Origin: a virus
Lineage: Duplodnaviria; Caudoviricetes
Length of the DNA stretch: 64,000 nt
Direction: 5' to 3' (one strand)
IMG/VR virus record: IMGVR_UViG_3300012942_000002
Coordinates: 5,772-69,771 of that record
Below, piece by piece: positions 5,533 to 50,830 of the stretch. The translations under genes and the position numbers were made by a program. Under the pieces are notes generated by a model. The model worked only from the letters and a program-made list of their open reading frames with translations, was not told the DNA's origin and ran no database searches. Position 1 is the first letter of the stretch. Each line of letters begins with the position of its first letter.

Positions 5533-5573
5533 GGGGTGCCTCCTTGGGGCTTCCTGTTGTCCTTACAAGAAGA

Positions 5574-5621: not shown

Positions 5622-6275
5622 TTACTCTGGCTCGCCGGGCACGAACGCCGCGTCGTACACCGAGCCGTCGCCCCGGTGGAAGCGAGCCTTGGTTCCGCGC
5701 GACCACTTGTTGATCCACTGGTAGTCGCGCGACCACTTGTTGACCTCGCGGAAGCCGACGCTCGCCATGAACTCGACCATGGCGTCGTAGCCCACGGCGA
5801 TGGTCGGGTCGTCCTTGGTGCAGCACTCGGCGATCACAAGGTCGAACTTGCTCATGTCGGCCGCACCCAGGACTTCGAGCTCCAGCCCTTGCGCGTCGAT
5901 CACGGCCACGTTCGCGTCGCCCTGGATGGAGTCGAGCCGGACCACGCTGACGTCGATGATCCTGTCGAGCCGGTCAGATCGCTGCGGCTCGTGCAGTGTT
6001 GACAGGTTCGTCTTCTGCATGATGTTGAGCGTGGCTGTGGTCGGAGCGGCTCCGCACGCGGCCTCGACGATCGTGATCGACAGGTCGTCCTCGTACCTGT
6101 CGCGCAGGAGCTCTGCCAGCTCGGGGATCGGCTCGACGAGCGTGATGCGCTCGGCTCCGGCCTGCTTGTAGAAGTCGACCTCCTCACCCCGGTGTGCACC
6201 TACGTGGATGATGTGCGTCGGCGTCACATCCAGATTGGTGATCAGACTCGGGAAGTCCACGAACACGCTGCCCAT
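5622..6275 (-). CDS. FkbM-family SAM methyltransferase
   Basis: IIHVGAHRGEE, LVEP, VRLDS, IDAQGLELEVL motifs. Confidence 0.85.
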   Translation of the reverse strand: MGSVFVDFPSLITNLDVTPTHIIHVGAHRGEEVDFYKQAGAERITLVEPIPELAELLRDRYEDDLSITIVEAACGAAPTTATLNIMQKTNLSTLHEPQRSDRLDRIIDVSVVRLDSIQGDANVAVIDAQGLELEVLGAADMSKFDLVIAECCTKDDPTIAVGYDAMVEFMASVGFREVNKWSRDYQWINKWSRGTKARFHRGDGSVYDAAFVPGEPE

Positions 6276-38081: not shown

Positions 38082-38127
38082 CTCGTCCTCCTTGGGGACC
38101 GGGGCGGACCACCCGCCCACAACACCA

Positions 38128-38198
38128 ACTATACCCCATCTCGACATGGAAGGCAACACATCTGCAGACTTGCTTTTTGCCGGCATGTGGAGTAGAGT
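38128..38198. promoter_or_regulatory. back-to-back divergent early promoters
   Basis: Minus: TTGCCT-17-TATAGT (38156-38128); plus: TTGCTT-17-TAGAGT (38170-38198). Confidence 0.8.
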
Positions 38199-38229
38199 TG
38201 ACCTCGTCAACGACCCCAAGGAGGTCCAA

Positions 38230-38448
38230 ATGTCCGCTCCCGTCTTCGTCCCGCTCTCCGGTCTCTACGTCCGGCTGCTGGCCGCTACGGCGCTCGCTAC
38301 CTACGGCTGCGCCGACTGCGTCCTGCTGCCTGCCGGCAAGTTCTGCCTGTCCCACGTCTGCCTGGACTGCGGCCGTATGGCGCACCCGCACTCGATGGCC
38401 TGCGTCCGTCGCGCCTGCTTCTCGCACCCCGGCTGCGACGGCTGCTGA
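38230..38448 (+). CDS. small Cys-rich early protein
   Basis: CCCCAAGGAGG RBS; nine Cys. Confidence 0.75.
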   Translation: MSAPVFVPLSGLYVRLLAATALATYGCADCVLLPAGKFCLSHVCLDCGRMAHPHSMACVRRACFSHPGCDGC

Positions 38449-38460
38449 TCGCCGGTCGGC

Positions 38461-38485
38461 CGCCCCGGTCCTCGCGACCGGGGCG
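38461..38485 (+). terminator. hairpin terminator
   Basis: CGCCCCGGTC/GACCGGGGCG. Confidence 0.65.
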
Positions 38486-38519
38486 TGCCGGCATGTCCAA
38501 AGAATCTTGGCGCAACCCC

Positions 38520-38548
38520 TTGCCTTCCATGTGGACATGGAGTAGACT
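38520..38548 (+). promoter_or_regulatory. early promoter
   Basis: TTGCCT-17-TAGACT with ATGGAG before the -10. Confidence 0.7.
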
Positions 38549-38616
38549 TGGTTTGATGCCCAAAATCGAAGCCGGCATGCCTGCAGAAGAATCTTCAAGA
38601 AAGTTGCACAAAGGGG

Positions 38617-38645
38617 TAGCGGAGGACTGCAGTCTGGAGTATAGT
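38617..38645 (+). promoter_or_regulatory. early promoter
   Basis: TAGCGG-17-TATAGT. Confidence 0.75.
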
Positions 38646-38684
38646 TCTTACTGTAAGCGAGAGAACGCCCCAAGGAGGCACCAG

Positions 38685-38924
38685 ATGACCGAGAACCAGC
38701 TCCCCGCGATCCGCATCGAGTACCGCAACCAGCGCAACGGCTGGGCGACCGCCACCTTCAAGACCGGCTACGGCGCGGAGCGCGAGACGCTGGAGGTCCG
38801 CAAGGTTCGCAACAACGAGGACGCCCTGCTCAACCTCTCCAACGAGATGAAGGCCAAGGGTTACCGGGGCGTCAGCTGGGCCGCGATGGGCACCGGCTAC
38901 TGGATGGGCGAGACCTGGATCTGA
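38685..38924 (+). CDS. early hypothetical protein
   Basis: CCCCAAGGAGG RBS. Confidence 0.85.
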   Translation: MTENQLPAIRIEYRNQRNGWATATFKTGYGAERETLEVRKVRNNEDALLNLSNEMKAKGYRGVSWAAMGTGYWMGETWI

Positions 38925-38947
38925 TCCAAGAAAGTCGGGGTGGAGGG

Positions 38948-38976
38948 TAGCGCCTCCACCCCGGCTGGAGTATAGT
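38948..38976 (+). promoter_or_regulatory. early promoter
   Basis: TAGCGC-17-TATAGT. Confidence 0.75.
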
Positions 38977-39011
38977 AGTTCTCGTAAGCAAGAGAGCCCC
39001 AAGGAGGCCAG

Positions 39012-39284
39012 ATGTTCGACGCGGAGAACACCAACGAGGACCTGCTCAACCGGGTCCGCGCGACCCAGGAGCTGCCGGGCACGGTTGAGGCGACCGGCCG
39101 GATCCGTGGCCAGTGGCACGAGATCGTCGAGACCTTCGACGGCGAGGGTGAGGCCTACGCCTACTGGGTCGCGCTGGACGACACCAACTCGGTCGGCTAC
39201 AAGCAGGCCGACACGCTCGACACCGACCCCGACGCGATCGACCTGGACTACGTCCACCTGGTCGAGCACGACGGCGAGCTCTGA
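39012..39284 (+). CDS. acidic early hypothetical protein
   Basis: CCCCAAGGAGG RBS; followed by hairpin 39293-39329. Confidence 0.85.
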   Translation: MFDAENTNEDLLNRVRATQELPGTVEATGRIRGQWHEIVETFDGEGEAYAYWVALDDTNSVGYKQADTLDTDPDAIDLDYVHLVEHDGEL

Positions 39285-39450
39285 CCGAGCCGGGAGCCCC
39301 GCACCTCCAACCGGAGGGAGCGGGGCTCCTGCATGTGCAGACGGCTCTCTGCCGGCCTCCAGCACATCGGGCTGTAGGTTAAAGCCCATCTGCACCCTCC
39401 AAGCCGGCATACAGCCATCTGCAGCTTTCCAAAATAGTTGCTGTGCAGAG

Positions 39451-39480
39451 TAGCCAACCCATGTCGACATGGGGTATAGT
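39451..39480 (+). promoter_or_regulatory. early promoter
   Basis: TAGCCA-18-TATAGT. Confidence 0.7.
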
Positions 39481-39523
39481 TACTCTCGTAAGGCCAACCG
39501 AGAGAGTCCCCCAGGAGGACGAC

Positions 39524-40240
39524 ATGAGCTACTCCATCCGCTACAACCGAGCCACCAACCACATCGCCGGGATCGCTTGCAAGACCACCAGCAACCAGAC
39601 CGACGAGGACATCAACCGGACCGGCGTCGTGGCCTACTACGCGGAGAACGCCTGTGGCGTCCTGACCCGTGGCCGTCTGGCCCAGGGAGCCTCGTACGAC
39701 AGCCTGGAGGAGGCGCTCAAGGCCGCGCGCATCACCGGCGGCCGCAAGGTCTGCAAGACCTGCGAGAAGGCCGCGCTGGCCGCTCTCGAGGCCGAGGCGG
39801 AGGCCGCCGCCAACGCCCCGGTCGAGGAGCCCAAGCCGGAGATCGTCGAGGGTGCCGAGCACCAGGTCGGCGACAAGCTGTACTTCATCCCGCTGGAGCG
39901 CCCGCACGGGTACGCCTGCCCCGCCGGAGAGGTCGAGGTCGTCCGGGTGGTTGACCACGGCGAGCCGACCCTGTACAGCCCGCGCTTCACCTACGTCGTC
40001 CAGGTGCCCGGCGTGCCGGCAAGCAGCCAGGGAACGGACCACCGCGAGCTGCACAAGATCGGTGAGGTGCCCGTGGACTACCGGTTCGAGTGGACGTACC
40101 TGACGGCCATCTGCTCCGACTGCCGGCAGAACGTCACCTTCGCCAACTCCAAGATCGTGGAGGAGCCCATCCTCCGCGAGGGTCCGGTCTACCCCGGCAT
40201 GGCGACGGTCAAGGCGAAGCGGGTGTGCGCCCACCACTGA
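39524..40240 (+). CDS. early hypothetical protein with CxxC motifs
   Basis: CCCCCAGGAGG RBS; CKTC, CSDC. Confidence 0.85.
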   Translation: MSYSIRYNRATNHIAGIACKTTSNQTDEDINRTGVVAYYAENACGVLTRGRLAQGASYDSLEEALKAARITGGRKVCKTCEKAALAALEAEAEAAANAPVEEPKPEIVEGAEHQVGDKLYFIPLERPHGYACPAGEVEVVRVVDHGEPTLYSPRFTYVVQVPGVPASSQGTDHRELHKIGEVPVDYRFEWTYLTAICSDCRQNVTFANSKIVEEPILREGPVYPGMATVKAKRVCAHH

Positions 40241-40367
40241 CCTCAGAGCGACCCGTAGAGGCCCTCTCCAGCCCCGGAGAGGGCCTCTCGGCTACCCGGC
40301 TCACGGCGCATGCCGGCATGTCGGCAAACGGCCACCTACTGATTTTCAACAATCTTCAAGGTGCAGG

Positions 40368-40396
40368 TTTCCATCCATCTGCACATGGGGTATAGT
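40368..40396 (+). promoter_or_regulatory. early promoter
   Basis: TTTCCA-17-TATAGT. Confidence 0.7.
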
Positions 40397-40450
40397 TCTT
40401 AGTGTAAGGCCGACCGCAAGGGTCGGCCCCGAGGCCCCAAGGAGGCCCCG

Positions 40451-40771
40451 ATGGACGAGAACACCAACACCGAGCACGACAAGTACGAGCTCGCCGTCCA
40501 GATCTCCGTCCTGAGCTACGACCTCAACGTCGCCAACCCGACGGTGCCGACGCTGCTCAAGGAGAACACCGAGGACCAGCTGATCGCCAAGCGGGACAGC
40601 CTCCTGGCGATGATCGACGAGCAGGTCTCGCTGGACGGCTTCTACGAGGTGCCCGCCCACATGGACGCCACGTGGCTGTGCACGCTGCTCCAGACCGAGC
40701 TCGGCGCGTACGTCGACGTCGACCCGGAGGCCGAGCAGGGCAAGTGCATCGTCCTGGTCGACCCCAGCTGA
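40451..40771 (+). CDS. early hypothetical protein
   Basis: CCCCAAGGAGG RBS; followed by hairpin 40787-40817. Confidence 0.85.
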   Translation: MDENTNTEHDKYELAVQISVLSYDLNVANPTVPTLLKENTEDQLIAKRDSLLAMIDEQVSLDGFYEVPAHMDATWLCTLLQTELGAYVDVDPEAEQGKCIVLVDPS

Positions 40772-40859
40772 ACCCCGCGCCAAGGCGAGCCCCGGTTCCC
40801 CAGCGGAGCCGGGGCTCTGCCCTTGCCGGCATGCCGGCAAAAGTTTCTGCACAAAGGGG

Positions 40860-40889
40860 TAGCGCGCAGGTGTGCACATGGAGTAAAGT
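40860..40889 (+). promoter_or_regulatory. early promoter
   Basis: TAGCGC-18-TAAAGT. Confidence 0.7.
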
Positions 40890-40929
40890 TCTATCAACAG
40901 CCCGAACGAGGAGCCCCAAGGAGGCCGAC

Positions 40930-41184
40930 ATGAACAGCTACAAGGTTACGATGCGGATGGGCCAGGACACCTGCAACACAACCACGGTCGTCGAGGCGGA
41001 GAGCGCGGAGGACGCGCCCCTGGTCGCGGAGATGAAGTGGACTGGGATCACGGTTCGGGTGCTGGACGTCGAGCGGGCGGACGACAGCAAGTACGGGTTC
41101 TGCGACGTCCACAAGGACCAGGAGCTGGAGGACCACTGCACCAGCTGCAACGCGGTCTACTGCGAGGCGTGCGAGTACGAGTAG
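40930..41184 (+). CDS. early protein with B-box-like Cys/His C-terminus
   Basis: CDVH...HCTSCNAVYCEAC; RBS; followed by hairpin 41202-41230. Confidence 0.8.
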   Translation: MNSYKVTMRMGQDTCNTTTVVEAESAEDAPLVAEMKWTGITVRVLDVERADDSKYGFCDVHKDQELEDHCTSCNAVYCEACEYE

Positions 41185-41261
41185 CGCACATGCCGGCAAC
41201 CGGCCCGCACCCCGGTGTGGGGTGCGGGCCTGAGGCAGTAGAAAGAATCTTCGATCTGGAG

Positions 41262-41290
41262 TAGCGCGAACCTCCAGATTGGAGTATAGT
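41262..41290 (+). promoter_or_regulatory. early promoter
   Basis: TAGCGC-17-TATAGT. Confidence 0.75.
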
Positions 41291-41335
41291 AGTTCTCGTA
41301 AGGCCAACCGGAACGAAGCCCCAAGGAGGCTCCCG

Positions 41336-41695
41336 ATGATGAACTCCGAGCGTACCGCCACCACCGTCGCCAAGCTGGCCCAGTCCGCCGCGCAGACCCT
41401 GCTCACCGCTCAGGCCCGCATCACCGACCAGTTCGCGGCCGGTGTGATGGTGTCCTCCTCCACCCTGGACTCCCTGATCGAGGCGCAGGCGGCGGCTCAC
41501 CTGACTGCCGGCCTGCAGACCCGCTGGAACCGGGGCGGGATGGCCGCCATCGAGTCCTGGCTGGAGGACGCGGCCGACCAGCTGATCACCGGCAACGCGG
41601 GCAGCTCCAGCAGCCCGGTCCACAACGCGATGGAGGTTGCCGAGCGCAAGGCGATGCAGGCGGCCTACCGGGCGCTGGCTCGCTGCCGCGACTGA
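41336..41695 (+). CDS. early hypothetical protein
   Basis: CCCCAAGGAGG RBS; followed by hairpin 41712-41739. Confidence 0.85.
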   Translation: MMNSERTATTVAKLAQSAAQTLLTAQARITDQFAAGVMVSSSTLDSLIEAQAAAHLTAGLQTRWNRGGMAAIESWLEDAADQLITGNAGSSSSPVHNAMEVAERKAMQAAYRALARCRD

Positions 41696-41744
41696 CCAAC
41701 CCCGCCCCGTCGGCCCGCATCCTGCAAAGGGTGCGGGCCTGGGG

Positions 41745-41773
41745 TAGTGAAAGAGCTCCACATGGAGTATAGT
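41745..41773 (+). promoter_or_regulatory. early promoter
   Basis: TAGTGA-17-TATAGT. Confidence 0.7.
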
Positions 41774-41810
41774 TACTCTCGTCAGCAAGCGAGTCCCCAA
41801 GGAGGACCCC

Positions 41811-42185
41811 ATGTACCAGTCCCTCGCGAACGCCGTCCAGATCGAGGCCGCCAAGGCCAACACCCGCCTGGAGCAGGCCAAGGCCGAGCTCACCAAGGCG
41901 CTGGCCACCCCGGTTGACGTTCCGGTCGGCCGGATGGAGGACCTCTGCAAGGCGCAGGCCGCGCTGCAGCTCTGGACCAAGCTGTACCTGGTCGCCGCCA
42001 AGTACCAGGGCGACTCGGCCGAGCAGAGCCGGATGCTGGTCCGCCGGGTCCGCGCTCTCCGCGACGAGCTGGTCGAGGAGTACGAGGTCCAGTCGACCAG
42101 CCCCTGGGTCAACGCCGAGGCCCGCACCGCCCGGAAGGTCAAGGTGGAGGTGTACGCGGTCCTCCGCGAGTTCGTCGAGGACTGA
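41811..42185 (+). CDS. early hypothetical protein
   Basis: GTCCCCAAGGAGG RBS; followed by hairpin 42204-42236. Confidence 0.85.
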   Translation: MYQSLANAVQIEAAKANTRLEQAKAELTKALATPVDVPVGRMEDLCKAQAALQLWTKLYLVAAKYQGDSAEQSRMLVRRVRALRDELVEEYEVQSTSPWVNAEARTARKVKVEVYAVLREFVED

Positions 42186-42595
42186 CAGCCCGGCCAACCG
42201 GCCCGAGCCCCGTTCCCCAAGTGGGAGCGGGGCTCTCTCGCGTTCCGGGGTCGCCGTGGCCCGTAGCGGCCCCGTAGGCGAGCGAACGCCCCGTGCGAGC
42301 CCCGTTGCCCCGCCAAGCCCGCGCGGAGCCGCCTACGAGCCTCCTACGGCTTCCGGCCGGACGTAACGGCGAGCCCGCGACCCGGCCACGCTGCGCCCCG
42401 GAGGGGCGAGTCCATGCCGGCTGCAAGCCGGCAGATGGCCCGATTCGACCCGATTTACCCTGAGGCGCGGTGAATCGCCGTAGACGCCCGGCACTCACTC
42501 CTACCTGGTCAAACAGAAGTTCTGGAAAAATCTTGAAGAAAGTTCGCGAGCCTCCTACCAGGGCATTCATCATGAATGACCAGGTAGACGCCGTG

Positions 42596-42624
42596 TTGCC
42601 TTCTGCGTGGATATGGAGCATGAT
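42596..42624 (+). promoter_or_regulatory. promoter for structured RNA A
   Basis: TTGCCT-17-CATGAT, preceded by palindrome 42554-42587. Confidence 0.6.
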
Positions 42625-42630
42625 AGTTCC

Positions 42631-42997
42631 TGTAAGCGAGAGGGCGGCGAGCGAAGCTCCCGGGACGGCGACTCCAGCCGACGGTCGAGGCTCCACCCGA
42701 AGAACGCGAACACCGAGCAAGGCGGCCAGGCGACAGGTCGGTAGCAGGAAATGCAGCGTCGGAGACTGGGCACCATCCCACCACAAGAAAACTGGTAGCG
42801 AGGGTAGTAGCGCGCAACGCTCCGGGGACGGACTTGCGGCTGGTCAGGGAGACACGGAACCGGCCACCGCAAGAGAGAACATCCGGAGAGTTGGCAAGGC
42901 GCAAGGGCCGAGCGAGCGGGCGGAGCGGCTGGTAGGTCCCACCGACGCCCGTGCAACACACAAGACGAAACAGCCCCGTCGGGAGACGCTGGCTGTA
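42631..42997 (+). ncRNA. putative structured ncRNA A ending at a hammerhead cleavage site
   Basis: No credible ORF; 5' domain covaries with 47249-47328; long-range stems 42756-62/42942-48 and 42833-39/42867-73. Confidence 0.55.
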
Positions 42998-43026
42998 GGC
43001 CGCTGAACGGCGGTCCTGAGGAGTCT
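42963..43026 (+). ncRNA. type II hammerhead ribozyme 1 (GUA site, cut after 42997)
   Basis: AGAC-GAAA-CAGCC..GGCTG-TA-GGCCGCT gaac GGCGGTC-CTGAGGA-GTCT. Confidence 0.88.
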
Positions 43027-43040
43027 CAAGGAGGAACACG

Positions 43041-43241
43041 ATGGGCATCCTGCCGAAGCGCGTCCCGCAGGCGAGCAACCCGCCGAACGGAACGCAGCAC
43101 GAGGGCCAGGGCGGTCAGTCCAACACGACGGGCTCCGGCCCGATCACGGACCGGCCGCTGCCCACCGAGGCCGACGGGCGCGACCTGATCCAGGTCGAGA
43201 ACCCGCTCGGCACGCCCGGCCCGGACGAGATCCAGCGCTGA
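43041..43241 (+). CDS. small Pro/Gly-rich protein
   Basis: AAGGAGG RBS joined to the ribozyme; followed by hairpin 43251-43279. Confidence 0.75.
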   Translation: MGILPKRVPQASNPPNGTQHEGQGGQSNTTGSGPITDRPLPTEADGRDLIQVENPLGTPGPDEIQR

Positions 43242-43315
43242 GCGGACGGCCAGCCGGGGAGCCCCCAGCTCCCCGGCTGTGCCGGCAACACCCGAAAGAA
43301 AGTTGCACTCCAGAG

Positions 43316-43344
43316 TAGCCATGCCGGCTGCAATGGAGTATAGT
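43316..43344 (+). promoter_or_regulatory. early promoter
   Basis: TAGCCA-17-TATAGT. Confidence 0.75.
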
Positions 43345-43388
43345 AGTTACTGTAAGGCCAACCCGACGAAGTCCCCAAGGAGGACCCC

Positions 43389-43991
43389 ATGGCCCGCAAC
43401 GAGAACAAGACCCAGAAGAACTTCGAAGCCCTCGCCGCCAAGGCTCCGACCCAGCTGCACGAGGACTTCGCCGAGTGGCTGTACATCCAGACCGGCATCA
43501 AGGTGGACGTCAAGACCGTCCAGCTGGCCGTCTCCTTCCGGATGGACTTCCAGGCCTCCCCCGAGAACCAGGCCAAGCTGGCCGAGCGCAAGGCAGCGGC
43601 TGCGGCCCGCAAGAAGGCGTCGGCCGAGCGCAAGAAGGCCAAGCTGGAGGCCGAGCTGGCGAAGCTCAAGGGAGATGCCGGCAAGGCCGAGGAGCCCAAG
43701 CAGGAGGCCGCCCCGGTCGTCGAGGAGACCAAGACCGAGGAGCCGGGGCCGGTCCAGAAGCTGACGGTGGTCTACGGCAACGGCGAGCCCGAGGTGCACA
43801 AGTTCGGCTGCGCCGACCTCAAGAAGATGACCAAGGCCAAGGGCTTCTCCAAGGAGACCGCGAACGTCCGGAGCCACACCGAGCTGACCCACCTGATCTA
43901 CTCGGACATGATCGACTCCGGCGAGTCCAGCCTGCAGGACAACTACATGGCCTACAACGCCAAGCCCTGCTGCCCCGCGCTGGACAGCTGA
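43389..43991 (+). CDS. Lys/Ala-rich paralog family protein 1
   Basis: PTQLHEDFAEWL...KTVQLAVSFRMDFQASPENQ, shared with 47743 and 54597. Confidence 0.85.
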   Translation: MARNENKTQKNFEALAAKAPTQLHEDFAEWLYIQTGIKVDVKTVQLAVSFRMDFQASPENQAKLAERKAAAAARKKASAERKKAKLEAELAKLKGDAGKAEEPKQEAAPVVEETKTEEPGPVQKLTVVYGNGEPEVHKFGCADLKKMTKAKGFSKETANVRSHTELTHLIYSDMIDSGESSLQDNYMAYNAKPCCPALDS

Positions 43992-44000
43992 CCAACCCCA

Positions 44001-44070
44001 GGACGAAACCGCCCGGTCTCCCGAGAGGAGGCCGGGCGGTCTGCGGCTGAGTGGCCGTACTGACGAGTCC
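44001..44070 (+). ncRNA. type II hammerhead ribozyme 2 (GUC, cut after 44041)
   Basis: GGAC-GAAA-CCGCCCGG..CCGGGCGG-TC-TGCGGCT gagt GGCCGTA-CTGACGA-GTCC. Confidence 0.93.
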
Positions 44071-44084
44071 CCAAGGAGGATCGC

Positions 44085-44366
44085 ATGACCGGCGAATCCG
44101 TCATCACCGACGAGCAGCTCGACGAGTGGGAGGCGCAGAACGTGCACCGTGGCAACAAGGCGGCTGCACCCATCCTCCGCGAGCTCACGCCTGAACAGCG
44201 CACCGTGGCCGTTGCTGAGGCCCACACGCGCATGAACCTGAGCGCGGGCTGGAACTACTCCGGCGCTGTCTGGCAGGCCGTGCAGGACTTGAAGGCGGGT
44301 CGTACGCCGTGCCTGGACGCGGCAGCCGACTATCGCAAGCGCGAGAACGAGCGCACCGGCCGCTGA
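44085..44366 (+). CDS. hypothetical protein flanked by two hammerheads
   Basis: CCAAGGAGG RBS. Confidence 0.85.
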   Translation: MTGESVITDEQLDEWEAQNVHRGNKAAAPILRELTPEQRTVAVAEAHTRMNLSAGWNYSGAVWQAVQDLKAGRTPCLDAAADYRKRENERTGR

Positions 44367-44377
44367 CATGCCGGCAA

Positions 44378-44433
44378 GGACGAAACCCGGCACCCAGCCG
44401 GGTCGGGCACTGGATGGTGCCCCTGACGAGTCC
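44378..44433 (+). ncRNA. type II hammerhead ribozyme 3 (GUC, cut after 44404)
   Basis: GGAC-GAAA-CCCGGC accca GCCGGG-TC-GGGCACT ggat GGTGCCC-CTGACGA-GTCC. Confidence 0.93.
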
Positions 44434-44447
44434 CCCAGGAGGATGTC

Positions 44448-44765
44448 ATGGGTCTGGTTCCGCTGCCGAGCGACGACGAGGTCGTCAAGGCGTGGCGTGA
44501 GCACGGCAAGAACAACTCGGCGACGGCCCGAGCGTTGGGCGTCAACGAGAGCACGATCCGCAAGGTGATCGTGCGAGCAACCGGCCGGACGCCTCGCCCC
44601 TACAAGAGGCTCCCGCTGGCCGGTGCACAGCTCTACGGAGCGTACCTGAAGGAAGGCGGCGACTGCCACTCCGTAGGCCGCCTAGCACGCCGCTACGGCG
44701 TCAAGCCCCAGTCGGTGCGCGCTGCGCTCCGTCGCTATCTGGACCGGGTCGACCCGGTCAACTGA
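44448..44765 (+). CDS. double HTH DNA-binding protein
   Basis: NNSATARALGVNESTIRK and SVGRLARRYGVKPQSVR. Confidence 0.8.
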   Translation: MGLVPLPSDDEVVKAWREHGKNNSATARALGVNESTIRKVIVRATGRTPRPYKRLPLAGAQLYGAYLKEGGDCHSVGRLARRYGVKPQSVRAALRRYLDRVDPVN

Positions 44766-44783
44766 GTCCCCAAGGAGGACAAC

Positions 44784-45008
44784 ATGGACAACGACCGCCG
44801 CGCGGTGTACGAGTACCTGATGAACAGCGGGTCGCAGATCAAGATGTCGACCTACGCGATCTTCGACGGCGTCGTCAACCACGACTACGTCGTCGTGCAC
44901 AGCGCCCCTCCCCGCGTCGTGCGGGAGCTCGTCGGCTTCTGCAAGATGGTGTCGATGAGCGAGCAGGGGCTCCTCATCCCGGTGACCAAGAAGGAGACCA
45001 GCAAGTGA
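44784..45008 (+). CDS. hypothetical protein
   Basis: GTCCCCAAGGAGG RBS. Confidence 0.8.
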   Translation: MDNDRRAVYEYLMNSGSQIKMSTYAIFDGVVNHDYVVVHSAPPRVVRELVGFCKMVSMSEQGLLIPVTKKETSK

Positions 45009-45163
45009 GCATCCCCAAGCCGCACGGCGGACACGAGCCCGCGCCTCCGCCGGAGGCCGACCCGGTCGTTCAGGCCGAGACGCGCGGCCACACCCCGGCG
45101 GAGCAGGTCCAGCCGCCCGAGGCCGACGCTCAGGACCTGTACGGTCCGCCCTCGGGGCAGTGA
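45005..45163 (+). CDS. small Pro-rich protein
   Basis: GTGA overlaps at both ends; AAGGAG upstream. Confidence 0.5.
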   Translation: MSIPKPHGGHEPAPPPEADPVVQAETRGHTPAEQVQPPEADAQDLYGPPSGQ

Positions 45164-45354
45164 TGCTGGATGTTCTTCATCGAGCTGCTCGCAGCCTTCT
45201 TCGAGGGGCTGATCGATGCGCTGAGGCCGAGCCGGTCGAGCCGCCGCAGGAAGCGGCGCTGAGCCAGGACCAGAGGCTGCTGTTCGACGCCATCAAGCGG
45301 GAGTTCCCGTTCATGAGCGACGAGTGCATCCTGCAGGTCATGTCAGAGATGTAG
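45160..45354 (+). CDS. hypothetical protein
   Basis: GTGA overlap; ends just before hammerhead 4. Confidence 0.55.
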   Translation: MMLDVLHRAARSLLRGADRCAEAEPVEPPQEAALSQDQRLLFDAIKREFPFMSDECILQVMSEM

Positions 45355-45358
45355 ACAA

Positions 45359-45411
45359 GGACGAAACCTCCGGAAGGAGGTCGGGCGTTGGATGACGCTC
45401 CTGAAGAGTCC
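45359..45411 (+). ncRNA. type II hammerhead ribozyme 4 (GUC, cut after 45382)
   Basis: GGAC-GAAA-CCTCC ggaa GGAGG-TC-GGGCGTT ggat GACGCTC-CTGAAGA-GTCC. Confidence 0.93.
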
Positions 45412-45425
45412 CGAAGGAGGACCAA

Positions 45426-45837
45426 GTGTACGACCGCAAGCATAGGATCCAGGTGGCGTTCGACGCCGAGACTGTTGCCGAGGCGACGGGCATCAAGCTC
45501 GACCCCGACACGTTCGAGGAGCACCTGGCGTTCGCCACGGAGTACCAGCTGGCGATGTACCGGCTCGGATCCAAGGCGAAGCGCGAGCAGACCCGTCCGC
45601 ACGTTCGGCAGTCGCTCGGCTACAGCTCGCTGATGCAGCTCCGAGCGCTACCTGTTCGCGATGGCCGAGCACCAGCACGAGATCGCCAAGGGTGGCCGCC
45701 TCAACGAGATGGAGCGCGCGGCTGTCTGGCGGATGCTGGAGCACGAGGGCAAGGTCGAGTTCGGACCCGCCCGGATGTACCACGCGACCGACCCGCAGAA
45801 CACCACGCTCCGTAAGCACATCGAGAACAACAAGTAA
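45426..45837 (+). CDS. hypothetical protein, apparently broken by a +1 frame change near 45639
   Basis: High-GC3 frame switches from MYDRK...SSLMQ to SERYLFAM...IENNK* (TAA 45835-37). Confidence 0.55.
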
Positions 45838-45860
45838 CTGTCCCCAAGGAGGACTGCACA

Positions 45861-46217
45861 ATGGCACAGAGCAACCGTCCCCGCATGTCTGTCGAGCCCA
45901 AGGTCGTGGAGCACCTGCTCGCGAGTCGTGGCCGCATCGTCACCCTGGCCGAGCTCGTCAAGGCGCTCCCGCGTGGAGCCAACGAGTCCTCCGTCCGAGC
46001 GGCCATGCGCCGCCTCTCGGAGCGGATGGACATCACGGTCATCTCCAAGGGGAACAGCTGGAGGCTTGAGGCCGAGTCCAGCCCCGACCTCACCGAGAAG
46101 GCCAACCCGGATGCCGGCAAGTCCCTCGGCAGCTTCGAGCAGGTCGGCGAGATGCAGGATGGAAGCCTGGTCGTGCGCGACGAGCAGAACCGGCTGTACG
46201 CGCTGAAGGCGCTCTAG
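45861..46217 (+). CDS. winged-helix DNA-binding protein
   Basis: GRIVTLAELVKAL...ESSVRAAMRRL...GNSWRL. Confidence 0.75.
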   Translation: MAQSNRPRMSVEPKVVEHLLASRGRIVTLAELVKALPRGANESSVRAAMRRLSERMDITVISKGNSWRLEAESSPDLTEKANPDAGKSLGSFEQVGEMQDGSLVVRDEQNRLYALKAL

Positions 46218-46312
46218 CGGCCCTACGTGGCCACGTAACGAACGAACGCGCCCCGGTCGGGCCGAGTGCCTGACCGGGGCGTGCGAGGCCCGTAGAGGGC
46301 GGAAGGAGCACC

Positions 46313-46705
46313 ATGAGGATCAGGAACGTAGCGATCGCCGGAGCGCTCATGCTCGGCGTGGCGGCGTGCGCGAGTGACGGACCCAGCGAGGTCACCGGCA
46401 CTCGCGACGACGTGCGCAAGGTGGCGGCCGTCAAGGAGAAGAGCCACAGGGAGAAGACCAGCGAGCGCAAGTGCACGCGCAGGGTCAACGGCACGTGCAA
46501 GTCGTACAAGACCGTGACCAGCTGGAAGAAGGTCGTGGACCGTGCCGGCAAGCCCGCTGTGTACTGCGTCGAGCTCGACAACGTCAACGGCGACAAGGGC
46601 CGGGACGACGAGTGGTTCACGGTAACCAATCACGACTACACCAAGGCGCTCTTCAAGGCCGAGGACGAGGGGCTCAAGTTCACGCCCCTGAGGACGGGCT
46701 GCTGA
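46313..46705 (+). CDS. putative lipoprotein
   Basis: Signal peptide with lipobox-like VAAC. Confidence 0.75.
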   Translation: MRIRNVAIAGALMLGVAACASDGPSEVTGTRDDVRKVAAVKEKSHREKTSERKCTRRVNGTCKSYKTVTSWKKVVDRAGKPAVYCVELDNVNGDKGRDDEWFTVTNHDYTKALFKAEDEGLKFTPLRTGC

Positions 46706-47034
46706 TGCGCACGCGCAGGGTTCTGCTCATCGGCGGTCTCATGGATGGCAAGTGGCACACGCACCTGAGCACGGACAGCAGGGTGTATATCGCGAAGCCC
46801 ATGCAGGTCACCGTCCTCCGCGAGGAGGACAGGCGTGCTCGGGTAGACATGCCAGAGCACGAGGTGTATCACCTGCAGCACGTGGCCCTGTACGGGCATG
46901 GGCTGTGGGTCGGCCTGCACGAGAGCACGCTGGACCGCCTCAGCATGGAGCGCCCCGGTCCGACTGAGGCGCACACCGGGATGATCCTGAGGGCGATCCT
47001 CCAGCGGGATGTGGCGACGGAGCTCGGCCTCTGA
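46705..47034 (+). CDS. hypothetical protein
   Basis: TGATG overlap; LIGGLMDG N-terminus. Confidence 0.75.
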   Translation: MRTRRVLLIGGLMDGKWHTHLSTDSRVYIAKPMQVTVLREEDRRARVDMPEHEVYHLQHVALYGHGLWVGLHESTLDRLSMERPGPTEAHTGMILRAILQRDVATELGL

Positions 47035-47202
47035 GCCGGAGGCCGGGTGAATCGCCGTTGACGATAGGGTTCGCCCGATTCGCCCCATGACGCGTCGCAC
47101 TCATGCCGGCCTGCGGATATAGAAAAAGTCGAAAAAAGTTCCACGAAAGTTGCACATGCCCCTACCTGCGCATTCATCGCGAATGACCAGGTAGGGGCTG
47201 AG

Positions 47203-47231
47203 TTGCCTCGGAGCCGGATATGGCGCATAGT
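47203..47231 (+). promoter_or_regulatory. promoter for structured RNA B
   Basis: TTGCCT-17-CATAGT, preceded by palindrome 47161-47196. Confidence 0.65.
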
Positions 47232-47237
47232 TCTACT

Positions 47238-47697
47238 CAGGAAGCGACGAGGGCAAGGAACGAACTCCCCGGATGGCCGGTCTGGCCGAGGGTCGAGGTT
47301 CCGCCTGAAGACCGCGAACCCGAGCAGGACAGCCAAGAGAGACGGCTGCGATCGCGCACAGGACTTCGGTCCTGGCCGCTGACTCTAGACAGGAGCCGGA
47401 CTCCCCAAAACCGGTATGTTGCGAGCGACGCGACTGGACTTCCCGAGGACGGGCAGCCAACCTCCACTGCGGACGTTGGAAGCGCACACAGTCGGGCGGT
47501 ACTGAAAGCTGCTAGCGAGCAACGGACTCCACCTCTTCAAGCCTGGGTCAAGTGAGACACCCCGCTCGGGGCACCTCTGGCTAGGAAGTCGAAAGGTGGA
47601 CGGTCTGCCGGCAACCGCAACCCTCAACAAGCTGAGGAGATGCCGGCACTCATCAACAACAAGGACGAAACGAGCCCGCTGGGAAGCGCTGCTCGTC
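47238..47697 (+). ncRNA. putative structured ncRNA B ending at a hammerhead cleavage site
   Basis: Homolog of the ncRNA A 5' domain; CAGGAC-UUCG-GUCCUG 47359-74; stems 47418-23/47616-21 and 47528-34/47594-600. Confidence 0.55.
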
Positions 47698-47726
47698 CGC
47701 CGGTGGATGCCGGTGCCGATGAGTCC
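47663..47726 (+). ncRNA. type II hammerhead ribozyme 5 (U4C core variant, cut after 47697)
   Basis: GGAC-GAAA-CGAGC..GCTCG-TC-CGCCGGT ggat GCCGGTG-CCGATGA-GTCC. Confidence 0.82.
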
Positions 47727-47742
47727 CCAAGGAGGAAACACC

Positions 47743-48207
47743 ATGGCCGAGAACACCACCCCCAGCAAGAAGACCTTCGCTGAGCGTGCGGCCGCTGAGC
47801 CCACCGAGCTCCACAAGGCGTTCGCCAAGTGGATCGAGGAGAAGACGGGCGTCACCCCGGACCTGAAGACGGTCCAGCTCGCCGTCACCATGCGGATGGA
47901 CTTCCAGTCCAGCGAGGAGAACCAGAAGGCTCTCGCCGAGCGCAAGGCTGAGGCCGCCAAGAAGGCGGAGGAGGCCAAGGCCCGGAAGCTGGCCAAGCTG
48001 GAGGCGGAGCTCGCCAAGCTCAAGGGCGGCGAGCAGAAGGACGAGGCGAAGCCCGAGGAGCCCGCTGAGGCCCCGAAGGACGACGCTGAGCCCGCCGCTG
48101 AGGGCGACGGCGAGAACGGCGCGGAGGCGGCCACGGAGGCCGCTCCCGAGCCCAAGAAGGCGACCACCGCCCGGCGCACCCGGCGGACGGCGGCCACCAA
48201 GAAGTAA
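47743..48207 (+). CDS. Lys/Ala-rich paralog family protein 2
   Basis: PTELHKAFAKWI...KTVQLAVTMRMDFQSSEENQ; basic C-terminal tail. Confidence 0.85.
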   Translation: MAENTTPSKKTFAERAAAEPTELHKAFAKWIEEKTGVTPDLKTVQLAVTMRMDFQSSEENQKALAERKAEAAKKAEEAKARKLAKLEAELAKLKGGEQKDEAKPEEPAEAPKDDAEPAAEGDGENGAEAATEAAPEPKKATTARRTRRTAATKK

Positions 48208-48266
48208 CACCCCATGAGCGCCCCCGGTCGAGGTGACCCCCACCCTCGACCGGGGTGCCAGGGCGA

Positions 48267-48331
48267 GGACGAAACGCTCCGGCTCATGCCGGCTGGAGCG
48301 TCCGGCGCTGGATGGCGCTGCTGAGGAGTCC
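48267..48331 (+). ncRNA. type II hammerhead ribozyme 6 (GUC, cut after 48302)
   Basis: GGAC-GAAA-CGCTCCGGC..GCTGGAGCG-TC-CGGCGCT ggat GGCGCTG-CTGAGGA-GTCC. Confidence 0.93.
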
Positions 48332-48344
48332 CCAAGGAGGATGC

Positions 48345-48818
48345 ATGGACCAGGTGTGGATCATCTGGAAGGTTCTGGTCGAGGAGGACCGCGAGGAATG
48401 CACTGCGGTGTTCACCGACGAGGACAAGGCCAACGACGCGATCAACCGGCTCCGGCTGCGCGACGTTGACAACGACGAGGTTGACTACAACCTCCGGCCG
48501 TGCTCGGTCGACCCGACCCCCGAGATGCTGGAGCTCCCCAAGACGCTCCGCGAGATGGGGTGCGACGAACTGCTCAACTCGGCTCGCATCGAGCTCTGCA
48601 ACGAGGGCAAGATGTACGTGCCCCTGTGGATCAACCCGGCGTGGCTGGTGCACGAGCTCAAGGCCAAGTACGGGCTCGGCATCGACTTCAAGGGTCGCCA
48701 GATGACGCTGGTCTCTCCCGACGAGGTCCAGCGTCGCCGAGAGTTCGGCATCCAGGATGAGAATGCTCCGAGCGACTTCGGGTACGAGGACGCCGGGTTC
48801 ACCGAGACGAGGGACTGA
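48345..48818 (+). CDS. hypothetical protein
   Basis: CCAAGGAGG RBS joined to the ribozyme. Confidence 0.85.
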   Translation: MDQVWIIWKVLVEEDREECTAVFTDEDKANDAINRLRLRDVDNDEVDYNLRPCSVDPTPEMLELPKTLREMGCDELLNSARIELCNEGKMYVPLWINPAWLVHELKAKYGLGIDFKGRQMTLVSPDEVQRRREFGIQDENAPSDFGYEDAGFTETRD

Positions 48819-48822
48819 GGAC

Positions 48823-48918
48823 GTGAACCACAGACAGAAGCCGGATCACTCAGGAGCGTGGTTCTGGTTATTAACCATCGCCCTCCTCGTGGCCTACGCT
48901 AGGTCGCAAGGCGGGTGA
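48823..48918 (+). CDS. possible 31-aa membrane peptide with tandem TTA codons
   Basis: GTG...WFWLLTIALLVAYA; TTA TTA at 48868-73. Confidence 0.3.
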   Translation: MNHRQKPDHSGAWFWLLTIALLVAYARSQGG

Positions 48919-49021
48919 CCTCCGCAGCCAGATCGAAACGCCCGCAACGCGACCGCCAGTCGTGGAGCGGGCGTCCGGCGGTAAGGCACCGCTGCTGACG
49001 AGATCGTGGAGGATCTTGCAC

Positions 49022-49306
49022 ATGAAGCTGGACAGACTGATCGAAGACCTCCTGGCCATCCAGGAGGAGCTCAAGGAGCAGGACGTCGACACGAGCGAGG
49101 TCGACGTGCTTGCCGGCATCCAGCCGAGCTACCCGCTCACCGGAGTCGTCCTGGGAGCCATCTCGGGCGAGACCCTCGCCGAGCACGTGGACGGCGAGCT
49201 CGACGACAACATGCGACGCGCGGTCTGGGTCGCCACGGACCAGGTCAGCTCGTACAGCGACTACCGGCCGTACGCGCCCCGTCCGCTGTGGGAGGCTGTC
49301 CGATGA
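49022..49306 (+). CDS. hypothetical protein
   Basis: GGAGG RBS; QPSYPL...YAPRPLW. Confidence 0.8.
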   Translation: MKLDRLIEDLLAIQEELKEQDVDTSEVDVLAGIQPSYPLTGVVLGAISGETLAEHVDGELDDNMRRAVWVATDQVSSYSDYRPYAPRPLWEAVR

Positions 49307-49620
49307 AGCCCGAGGTGTGCGTCGCCCCGGCTGACAGGGGCTCCAACTGCTACCTGTGCCAGTCGAAGGCGGCTGTCTGCTGCATCCCGCGTGACCTGGA
49401 CGACCCGGAGATCACGCCGGAAGCGGGCGAGTGGTACCCCATGGGGCTGCTGTCCTGCTGGGGGTGCATCCGCAAGATCCTGACGATGCTCATGTCGGAC
49501 CCCAAGCTCCCCGAGCGAGAGGCCGACGCCCTGGAGGAAGACGTGAGGGCGCTGCGCCCGAGCCGCCTGGAGGAGCTTGAGCACAAGCTCGACGAGATCG
49601 ACGAGGAGCTCGGTCACTGA
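49303..49620 (+). CDS. hypothetical protein with CxxC motifs
   Basis: ATGA overlap; GGAGG RBS. Confidence 0.75.
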   Translation: MKPEVCVAPADRGSNCYLCQSKAAVCCIPRDLDDPEITPEAGEWYPMGLLSCWGCIRKILTMLMSDPKLPEREADALEEDVRALRPSRLEELEHKLDEIDEELGH

Positions 49621-49775
49621 TGGCAAGCTTCATGCAGAACTGGTGGACCAAGCACGACATGGACCGCGACGGCAAGGGCTGCTTCTTCATGATGCTCGGA
49701 TGCCTCGGGATCGTGTTCGTGGCTGGTGTCGGGGCCACGCTCGTCGGCGTGTACCTGCTCGGCAAGTACTCCTGA
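49620..49775 (+). CDS. small membrane protein
   Basis: TGATG overlap; FFMMLGCLGIVFVAGVGATLVGVYLL. Confidence 0.65.
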   Translation: MASFMQNWWTKHDMDRDGKGCFFMMLGCLGIVFVAGVGATLVGVYLLGKYS

Positions 49776-49789
49776 ACAACCTCAGCCTA

Positions 49790-49843
49790 GGACGAAACCT
49801 CCGAGAGGAGGTCCGCCGGTACGGTGCCGGTGCTGACGAGTCC
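49790..49843 (+). ncRNA. type II hammerhead ribozyme 7 (GUC, cut after 49813)
   Basis: GGAC-GAAA-CCTCC gaga GGAGG-TC-CGCCGGTA cgg TGCCGGTG-CTGACGA-GTCC. Confidence 0.93.
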
Positions 49844-49858
49844 TGAGGAGATTCGCAC

Positions 49859-50830
49859 ATGTCTGACAAGCAGAACCCGATGCTGGCCAAAATCCAGGGC
49901 CTGCTCGACACGTACCAGTCGCTGGCCGACACCAACCCCGAGGGTGCGCAGTCGTACCTCGACAAGGCCGAGCAGCTCATGCAGAAGTACGCGGTGGACG
50001 AGGCGATGCTGTCCGCCGCGCGCCAGCTGGCCGGTGGGCTCGTGGAGGAGCCCGAGCAGCGCATCATCACGTTCATGCCGGCAAACGACAAGCTCGGCAA
50101 CCAGTGGTACAACCTGATCATCGCGGTCGCCAAGCACTACGACTGCGAGTTTTTCGGCTGGACCTCCGGCACGGGTTACCTGGTCGGGTTCCCGTCCAAC
50201 ATGGACCTGGTCGAGATGGTGTACACCTCGCTGCGCCTTCAGGCGCTGGCCAAGCTCGACCCCAAGCCCAACAAGCAGCTCTCGTTCGACGAGAACGTGT
50301 ACATCCTGCACGAGGCCGGGATCAAGTGGCAGCGCATCGCCTTCCTCATGAACCAGGCGTGGCACGAGGCCAAGGAGCTCGGGGTCGTCATCGACTCCAA
50401 CTGGGAGCAGGTCCCCTGGGAGATCGACGACAGGGGCAATGGCAAGAAGGACGGCGGTCGACTGATCCGGGCGGCCAAGCGCTGGTGCAAGGACATCGGC
50501 GAGCCGTACCGCGCGGTGTCCTCGCCGGTCACCTTCCAGCGCTCCTACGCGCAGGGCTTCCTCAACGAGGTGCGCGACAGGTTCGCCCGGCTCCGCAAGT
50601 ACCGCGAGGACCAGATCAAGTCCACCAACGGAGCGGAGCTCGTGCTGTTCGACCGCAACAAGCTGGTCCGGGACGCGATGGACGCGCTCAAGGCCAGCAT
50701 GGGGCACAAGGACGGCAAGGGGTACAGGCAGCGCATCGTCGGCGAGGCGTACTACCGAGGCCAGGCCGACGGTCGCACGGCGGACATCGGTCAGGACCGG
50801 ATGGGCGGCGGACGGAAGGCGATCGGCTGA
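49859..50830 (+). CDS. DUF2786-like domain protein
   Basis: N-terminal KIQGLL...KAEQLMQKYAVD; C-terminal AYYRGQADG. Confidence 0.75.
   Translation: MSDKQNPMLAKIQGLLDTYQSLADTNPEGAQSYLDKAEQLMQKYAVDEAMLSAARQLAGGLVEEPEQRIITFMPANDKLGNQWYNLIIAVAKHYDCEFFGWTSGTGYLVGFPSNMDLVEMVYTSLRLQALAKLDPKPNKQLSFDENVYILHEAGIKWQRIAFLMNQAWHEAKELGVVIDSNWEQVPWEIDDRGNGKKDGGRLIRAAKRWCKDIGEPYRAVSSPVTFQRSYAQGFLNEVRDRFARLRKYREDQIKSTNGAELVLFDRNKLVRDAMDALKASMGHKDGKGYRQRIVGEAYYRGQADGRTADIGQDRMGGGRKAIG

Follow-up and report, generated by a model that had tools for sequence, protein, structure and literature searches.

The window analyzed here is a stretch of 64,000 nucleotides (nt) of a Caudoviricetes virus (IMG/VR record IMGVR_UViG_3300012942_000002, positions 5,772 to 69,771), in which an array of eight type II hammerhead ribozymes, all on the plus strand, is embedded among small early-type genes, most of them without an assigned family. 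Identity to the Streptomyces phages ShakeNBake, Lizz and PHTowN amounts to 99%, that to six others to 79-86%, and all these relatives belong to the lytic BN cluster (PMC8852317). The window itself likewise comes from a BN cluster phage of soil Streptomyces. When both strands were scanned with a descriptor, seven matches were obtained with a strict core and eight when one core mismatch was allowed, and none of 200 dinucleotide shuffles of the window contained a match. The Rfam model RF02276 detects two of the eight copies, with 31.1 bits for hammerhead 8 and a weak 25.2 bits for hammerhead 3, both under the cut-off of 37. The start codons behind all eight ribozymes match deposited genes of the 99% identical ShakeNBake. 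Judged from the sequence, the array is real and previously unannotated, the type II topology as such being already known in phages. Ribozymes in BN phages were not found reported in the literature covered, most subscription papers lying outside it, and the word Streptomyces is absent from the text supplements of PMC3088659.

Hammerhead 1 (42962..43043), with the stem II AGAC/GUCU and a GUA triplet, is predicted to be cut after position 42997, which leaves a leader of 43 nt in front of the ATG at 43041 with its Shine-Dalgarno sequence (SD). Leaders of the same length are expected for hammerhead 2 (44000..44087, long stem III, cut after 44041, ATG 44085), hammerhead 3 (44377..44450, cut after 44404, ATG 44448 of a helix-turn-helix protein) and hammerhead 4 (45358..45428, cut after 45382, GTG 45426). 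Hammerhead 5 (47662..47745) has the core CCGAUGA, that is the U4C variant, and its cut after 47697 lies 45 nt before the ATG at 47743; hammerhead 6 (48266..48347, cut after 48302) leaves 42 nt before the ATG at 48345; hammerhead 7 (48930..49024, stem II GAUC/GAUC, cut after 48975) leaves 46 nt before the ATG at 49022; and hammerhead 8 (49789..49861, cut after 49813) leaves 45 nt before the ATG at 49859, which opens the gene for a DUF2786/DUF7168 protein. A preliminary description of this DNA had given seven of these distances, all of which were reproduced exactly by the descriptor scan; it had omitted the copy cut at 48975, so that the range is 42-46 nt. Its statement that the 3' strand of stem II runs into the SD holds for all eight copies, in which the end of stem II is 1-3 nt away from the SD. 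Six of the ribozymes are intercistronic, the other two are situated 365-460 nt downstream of a promoter-like site, and no -10-like box was found within the ribozyme modules.

For comparison we used 26-28 kb stretches of six relatives together with the window; the near-identical ShakeNBake was omitted, and Lizz and PHTowN were not included. Each of these seven genomes contains 6-8 copies, which makes 49 in total, and without exception they lie on the coding strand, 41-47 nt ahead of a start codon. The core (CUGANGA, GAAA and an NUH triplet) is canonical in seven of the eight window copies, and the U4C change in the remaining one is a known active variant with lowered activity in vitro (PMC3088659). 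Each copy has three stems showing compensatory changes, of which I and III are loop-capped and II is open. In 18 chosen copies, all 108 stem I cells were paired, double changes occurred in five of the six pairs, and the covariation score was reached by none of 500 shuffles. Of 26 distinct stems, 21 have a G-U wobble as the second pair of stem I. For stem II, four compensated types exist among the copies, and GGAC/GUCC is found in six of the eight in the window. Five copies (L003 14752, L004 14498, L006 14127, L007 11079 and 14309) have a variant stem III of only 3 bp, followed by a recurring UA/GA(U/C) internal loop. A U at position 1.7 and an A just 5' of stem II are invariant in all 49 copies; a Hoogsteen contact between such residues has been described for fast hammerheads (cited second-hand in PMC11875169), and such a contact may be formed in this type II fold as well. 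The pseudoknot between loop I and the 3' tail, which is usual in most, not all, type II hammerheads, was rejected for these copies, because only one of 27 loop-tail pairs reached 4 bp (permuted mean 0.92). In 19 of 23 copies whose loop has 7 nt, this loop is instead complementary to the 5' flank, compared with 41% for the flanks of the other class. The tertiary contacts appear to use the upstream strand, which would leave the 3' tail free for the SD.

The eight leaders in the window are similar in length and fold, yet they begin with eight different stem I sequences. In all 49 copies stem I comprises 18 or 19 nt; the core then takes 7 nt and stem II 4 nt, and the remaining 11-18 nt are ordinary SD and spacer. 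The resulting leaders measure 41-47 nt (mean 43.7, standard deviation 1.6), with start codons that were chosen by script in the relatives and differ from the deposited ones for Dryad 81, Yara 79 and 88, and phiRKBJ001 91. The uniform leader length hence follows from the fixed ribozyme anatomy plus normal SD spacing, and it was rejected as a separately selected trait. The layout is also neither unique to these phages nor new. A survey of 127 loci from one sixty-fourth of a viral collection gave 40 loci with 45 well-formed type II hammerheads. An SD-led start lies at 27-124 nt in 38 of these and at 40-50 nt in 10 of the 45, and seven have none. Since an SD-led start occurs 8-50 nt past the core in 33 of the 45 hammerheads vs 16 of 86 stemless pattern matches, type II hammerheads of phages are as a rule placed before the ribosome binding site (RBS), and the BN copies represent the tight end of this arrangement. 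Further phage contigs (L037-L040, L146-L149) carry 6-10 SD-proximal type II hammerheads, and single ones followed by SD-like sequence were seen in uncultured Actinomycetota genomes (L166, L171, L173, L175). Clusters flanking single prophage genes have been described by Perreault et al. 2011 (PMC3088659), who proposed single-gene mRNAs; tandem prophage hammerheads were cleaved in vitro and in E. coli, and the 5' end of a halovirus transcript was mapped no more than 3 nt from a hammerhead cut that lies 13 nt ahead of a start codon (PMC3088659).

Hammerheads 1 and 5 are preceded by predicted noncoding RNAs. RNA 1 (42632..42997, +, about 365 nt) extends from a promoter-like site to the cut of hammerhead 1, and RNA 2 (47239..47697, +, about 460 nt), whose 5' end is paralogous to that of RNA 1, ends at the cut of hammerhead 5. 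Both regions are unannotated, show 87-100% identity in relatives and have no common open frame. Double changes were observed at 11 of 30 consensus pairs, and a hammerhead cut follows 276-461 nt past the noncoding start in every row but four, where the L142 and L154 loci end too early. Both RNAs are probably structured; whole-RNA folding stability was not above that of shuffles (z -0.76 and +0.38). There was no Rfam match, and the regions were found only in BN phages and related contigs. The main job of hammerheads 1 and 5 may be 3'-end formation. The copy behind RNA 2 (core at 47716-47722) is of the U4C type in the window and five relatives, is canonical in Yara and has a GUA triplet in two other contigs (L137 9955; L145), which hints at a tuned rate. 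Transcripts were looked up in eight public runs as assembled contigs only, several of them probably from DNA or related strains; these contigs showed no end pile-up and, among the joints listed, no joint from cut site to cut site. Contigs of run X19 that end at 47666 or begin at about 47710, around the cut at 47697, were not taken as evidence (depth about 3, RNA status only guessed).

The start sites behind the ribozymes resemble those of genes with their own promoters. Upstream of the array, eight promoter-led early cassettes (38190..41813, +) combine a TA(T/G/A)AGT -10-like box with an SD hairpin of the form NNCC-CNNAGGA-GGNN, and the motif GUCC-CCAAGGA-GG also precedes ribozyme-free genes. 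The hairpin is predicted as a stem with a bulged A and an NNAG tetraloop; its stability is low (-2 to -8 kcal/mol), and the final GG of the SD forms part of the stem. The window has 18 sites of the pattern NCCC-NN-AGGAGG-N, and in all 18 the outer letters are Watson-Crick complementary, with three pair types. In promoter leaders of six genomes the flanking pair is Watson-Crick in 51 of 52 cases and of all four types, and in fixed register 11 of 14 unique contexts are paired (permutation p 0.0006), the rows being related in both counts. Two further contigs add 16 complementary pairs at 16 sites. The sites lie at 38212-48342 and, on the minus strand, at 38087-38099 and 5539-5551; they belong to early-type starts and are rare at late genes. 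The hairpin is a possible operator for an unknown factor. It may resemble CsrA-like or coat-protein-operator hairpins.

Promoter and ribozyme appear to be exchangeable in front of this start site. Promoter leaders, with transcription assumed to start at the eighth base past the -10-like box, measure 24-47 nt, and the distance from hairpin arm to start codon is 17-19 nt in promoter leaders and 17-20 nt in ribozyme leaders. The paralogous genes 43389 and 47743, the former promoter-led and the latter ribozyme-led, have an identical start-site motif; the promoter-like site and leader of gene 43389 (43316..43391, +) contain a GUCC-type SD hairpin and are the likely start of the transcript holding hammerheads 2-4. 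Across the relatives, homologous genes alternate among promoter, ribozyme and bare SD hairpin. Two internal SD hairpins of the window have neither ribozyme nor promoter, one (44766..44780, +) before gene 44784, whose homologue is ribozyme-led in Dryad, and one (45840..45854, +) before gene 45861, whose homologue is ribozyme-led in Yara. The common start-site motif supports the suggestion that the ribozyme stands in for a promoter.

In most ribozyme modules the 3' strand of stem II is at the same time the 5' arm of the SD hairpin. Because of this common strand, ribozyme fold and SD hairpin are mutually exclusive. The stem II strand is predicted to be paired downstream in 25 of 30 distinct BN products, vs 10 of 33 hammerheads of other phages, and observed folding reached -150.2 kcal/mol compared with -129.5 ± 9.0 kcal/mol for spacer shuffles, the best of 200 being -153.1. 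After predicted cleavage, the last GG of the SD pairs in the new hairpin, and in the products of copies 7 and 8 folding places the SD within the loop; in the ribozyme fold, the extended stem II reaches the SD only in these two of the eight copies. According to secondary-structure energies, the ribozyme fold ranks first in three of the eight precursors. From these sequence comparisons, what appears to be new here is that a stem II strand is shared with a covarying SD hairpin of promoter-led early genes.

The reading that we favor, and regard as somewhat on the probable side, is that the module substitutes for a promoter: it would cut read-through RNA, cap both ends with hairpins and give the downstream gene a standard early start site. 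The eight hammerheads ahead of early genes would divide three read-through transcripts into gene-sized pieces. By analogy with the ribozyme family, the upstream piece should end behind stem III in a 2',3'-cyclic phosphate, and the downstream piece should begin with a 5'-OH on its stem I; both new ends would bear hairpins because the cut falls behind stem III and before stem I. Folding suggests that GUCC would then switch from the upstream GGAC to GGA(C/U) past the SD, by which the upstream piece would be expelled and re-ligation disfavored, and that the freed stem II strand would refold into the SD hairpin common to promoter-led early genes. In such a model, decay and translation of the gene would be uncoupled from the upstream RNA, and hammerheads 1 and 5 would set the 3' ends of the two noncoding RNAs.

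Several observations weigh against this promoter substitution. The full 4-bp complement of stem II after the SD occurs in 30 of 65 distinct contexts compared with 22.2 ± 2.4 in permutations, which is a modest excess, and covariation is not general, since it was found in none of four GACC, one of five GAUC and three of nine GUCU types; moreover, the rows are related and pyrimidine-rich arms can pair with any nearby GGAG. With Turner energies, which consider secondary structure only, a non-ribozyme fold is ahead by 1.2-3.9 kcal/mol in five of the eight precursors. The start region of products 1-3 is predicted to pair with its own coding sequence; therefore, insulation could at best be from upstream. 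All six Yara promoter leaders lack the SD hairpin, and Gibson's homologue of gene 49022 is apparently expressed with no ribozyme upstream. In E. coli, cleavage of a twister ribozyme in a 5' untranslated region (UTR) with accessible SD left protein and mRNA unchanged (PMC5052635). RNase J can attack 5'-OH ends (PMC4652760; bioRxiv 2026.04.06.716707).

The preliminary description had taken RNase E and RNase J to prefer 5'-monophosphate ends and had proposed that cleavage could free the RBS. That hammerhead products carry a 5'-OH beside a cyclic phosphate is stated in PMC6765202, the stem I hairpin is predicted at the very 5' end of all eight products, and the preference of RNase E for 5'-monophosphate over hydroxyl is supported (bioRxiv 2026.04.06.716707). 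For RNase J such a preference is not general: the Bacillus subtilis enzyme acts exonucleolytically from 5'-monophosphate or hydroxyl (PMC4652760), and the Mycobacterium smegmatis enzyme cut both ends alike, whereas that of M. tuberculosis favored phosphate (bioRxiv 2026.04.06.716707). If the products are protected at all, the 5'-terminal hairpin is a likelier cause than the 5'-OH. As RNase J is present in Streptomyces and, in B. subtilis and M. smegmatis, degrades RNA with a 5'-OH exonucleolytically, cleavage might even serve as a decay trigger that exposes ends to this enzyme and shortens the life of early messages, as with glmS, where cleavage is followed by degradation (PMC6765202). This appears improbable, however, given that the first base of each product is predicted to be paired, within a 6-bp stem of -7.6 to -11.1 kcal/mol, and that the downstream product has a strong SD; furthermore, the terminal hairpin of RiboJ accompanies more mRNA, not less, with a twofold rise in mRNA and a two- to tenfold rise in protein (PMC6206723). 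The repeats could also owe their maintenance to a role as junctions at which genes are gained and lost, with cleavage secondary, similar to the PeSLs that act in this way in T4-type phages (PMC2839356). In Wentworth, phiRKBJ001 and Dryad the blocks of the alignment end at the repeats, and gene losses have breakpoints inside the shared core-SD sequence: in the first two phages hammerhead 2 is fused to the tail of hammerhead 3 and the gene behind it, and in Dryad to the gene at 44784. Stem sequences diverge while pairing and catalytic residues are kept, which means less homology and points to selection on RNA function, so that recombination is probably a by-product and not what the repeats are kept for; as the main explanation it seems quite improbable, and it is compatible with the promoter substitute. 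Least credible, in our opinion very improbable, are circular mRNAs, although the piece between two successive cuts has both hammerhead halves and could be re-ligated, the halves being interchangeable through the GGAC/GUCC stem II of six copies. The idea was raised in PMC3088659, but its authors did not detect circles. Moreover, the GAUC copy is unable to pair with its neighbors, the SD hairpin competes for the stem II strand, and an RNA ligase is neither annotated in ShakeNBake nor found by Pfam among 68 proteins.

Control of translation deserves separate consideration. Cleavage might work as a gate or timer, in which the uncut three-way junction beside the SD blocks the 30S subunit and the GUCC strand is contested by the ribozyme fold, the SD hairpin and the ribosome; cleavage would then turn translation on after a delay, possibly via a factor binding to the SD hairpin. 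The two folds lie within 0-4 kcal/mol of each other, part of the SD is masked by an extended stem II in precursors 7 and 8 while the products place it in a loop, structure at a standby site inhibits translation (PMC5052635), and the SD hairpin is confined to early-type start sites. The U4C copy behind noncoding RNA 2, conserved in five relatives and less active in vitro (PMC3088659), would also suit a timer. We nevertheless regard the gate as rather unlikely, since the ribozyme leaves the SD unpaired in six of the eight copies, and the proposed freeing of the RBS is weak for the same reason and because the SD is partly paired after cleavage. In addition, the pairing to loop I seen in 19 of 23 copies accounts equally well for the CC that precedes copies 7 and 8, and no RNA-binding family was found among the 68 scanned proteins. 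A related view, which we hold to be unlikely, takes the SD hairpin as an operator common to all early genes, through which a protein or a released noncoding RNA would gate translation and self-cleavage in trans; both would be controlled jointly because the 5' arm of the hairpin is the stem II strand. Neither an RNA ligase nor an RNA-binding regulator was found by annotation in ShakeNBake or by Pfam among the 68 proteins, most of which are family-less. Exact complements of the SD motif on the plus strand, sought as antisense RNA, are reverse-strand starts or lie outside the early region; near-complements were not sought.

Returning to the promoter substitute, the closest known systems are the prophage hammerheads of Perreault 2011 (RF02276), which share type II topology, canonical core, tandem arrangement between small phage genes and the single-gene mRNA proposal, and the HHphage of haloviruses HF1/HF2, which is placed 13 nt upstream of the start codon like the BN copies before theirs (PMC3088659). 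The BN copies differ from prophage hammerheads in that they lack the loop I-3' tail pseudoknot and leave the tail to the SD, in that the stem II strand doubles as an arm of the SD hairpin found on promoter-led genes, in that two copies end noncoding RNAs, and in that they occur in lytic Streptomyces phages and score under the Rfam cut-off. RiboJ (PMC6206723), to which the modules had been likened, resembles them in that self-cleavage upstream of the RBS is predicted to leave a hairpin-capped 5' end of fixed architecture; it sits where a promoter joins the leader and makes all 5' sequences identical, whereas the BN copies are mostly intercistronic, their sequences differ and the upstream product would be hairpin-ended too. 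Engineered hammerhead and twister SD switches (PMC5052635) likewise have a ribozyme that abuts the SD and re-pair a neighboring strand upon cleavage, but lock the SD in a ribozyme stem, while in BN phages it largely lies beyond the ribozyme and is predicted to be partly paired in the cleaved product. PeSLs (PMC2839356) are similarly repeated regulatory cassettes of a variable early region with gene gain or loss at the repeats; they consist of promoter and terminator, the BN module of ribozyme and start site. Ribozymes in 5'-UTRs of fungal and plant RNA viruses (PMC13725137) represent natural, translation-linked viral cleavage upstream of a coding region, although they are mostly type I and act in eukaryotic cap-independent initiation lacking an SD. 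Of the proposals made at the outset, the hairpin-capped single-gene or short messages and the promoter stand-in are supported, and sparing by RNase J and freeing of the RBS are weakened.

The role of phage hammerheads has been open since 2011, and a 2019 review calls their purpose undefined (PMC6765202). The BN phages are a culturable lytic family with 6-8 copies per genome, natural deletions and the same start site with promoter, ribozyme or neither, which makes the question directly testable. If the strand swap is true, it would explain how the ribozyme is able to abut the SD and how the cut is made final, and the modules could supply native insulator parts for Streptomyces engineering.

Some minor observations concern the neighborhood of the array. 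At about 45648 the window has two bases fewer than a contig of run X1, likely an assembly error or strain variant, which splits gene 45426 (414 nt in ShakeNBake). An ARAGORN call of a tRNA-Pro at 43212-43298 on the minus strand overlaps a terminator-like hairpin and is probably spurious, because BN phages are reported to have no tRNAs. Finally, one unknown protein family (phrog_20596-like) has three paralogues in the window, at 43389, 47743 and about 54558, with different 5' modules.

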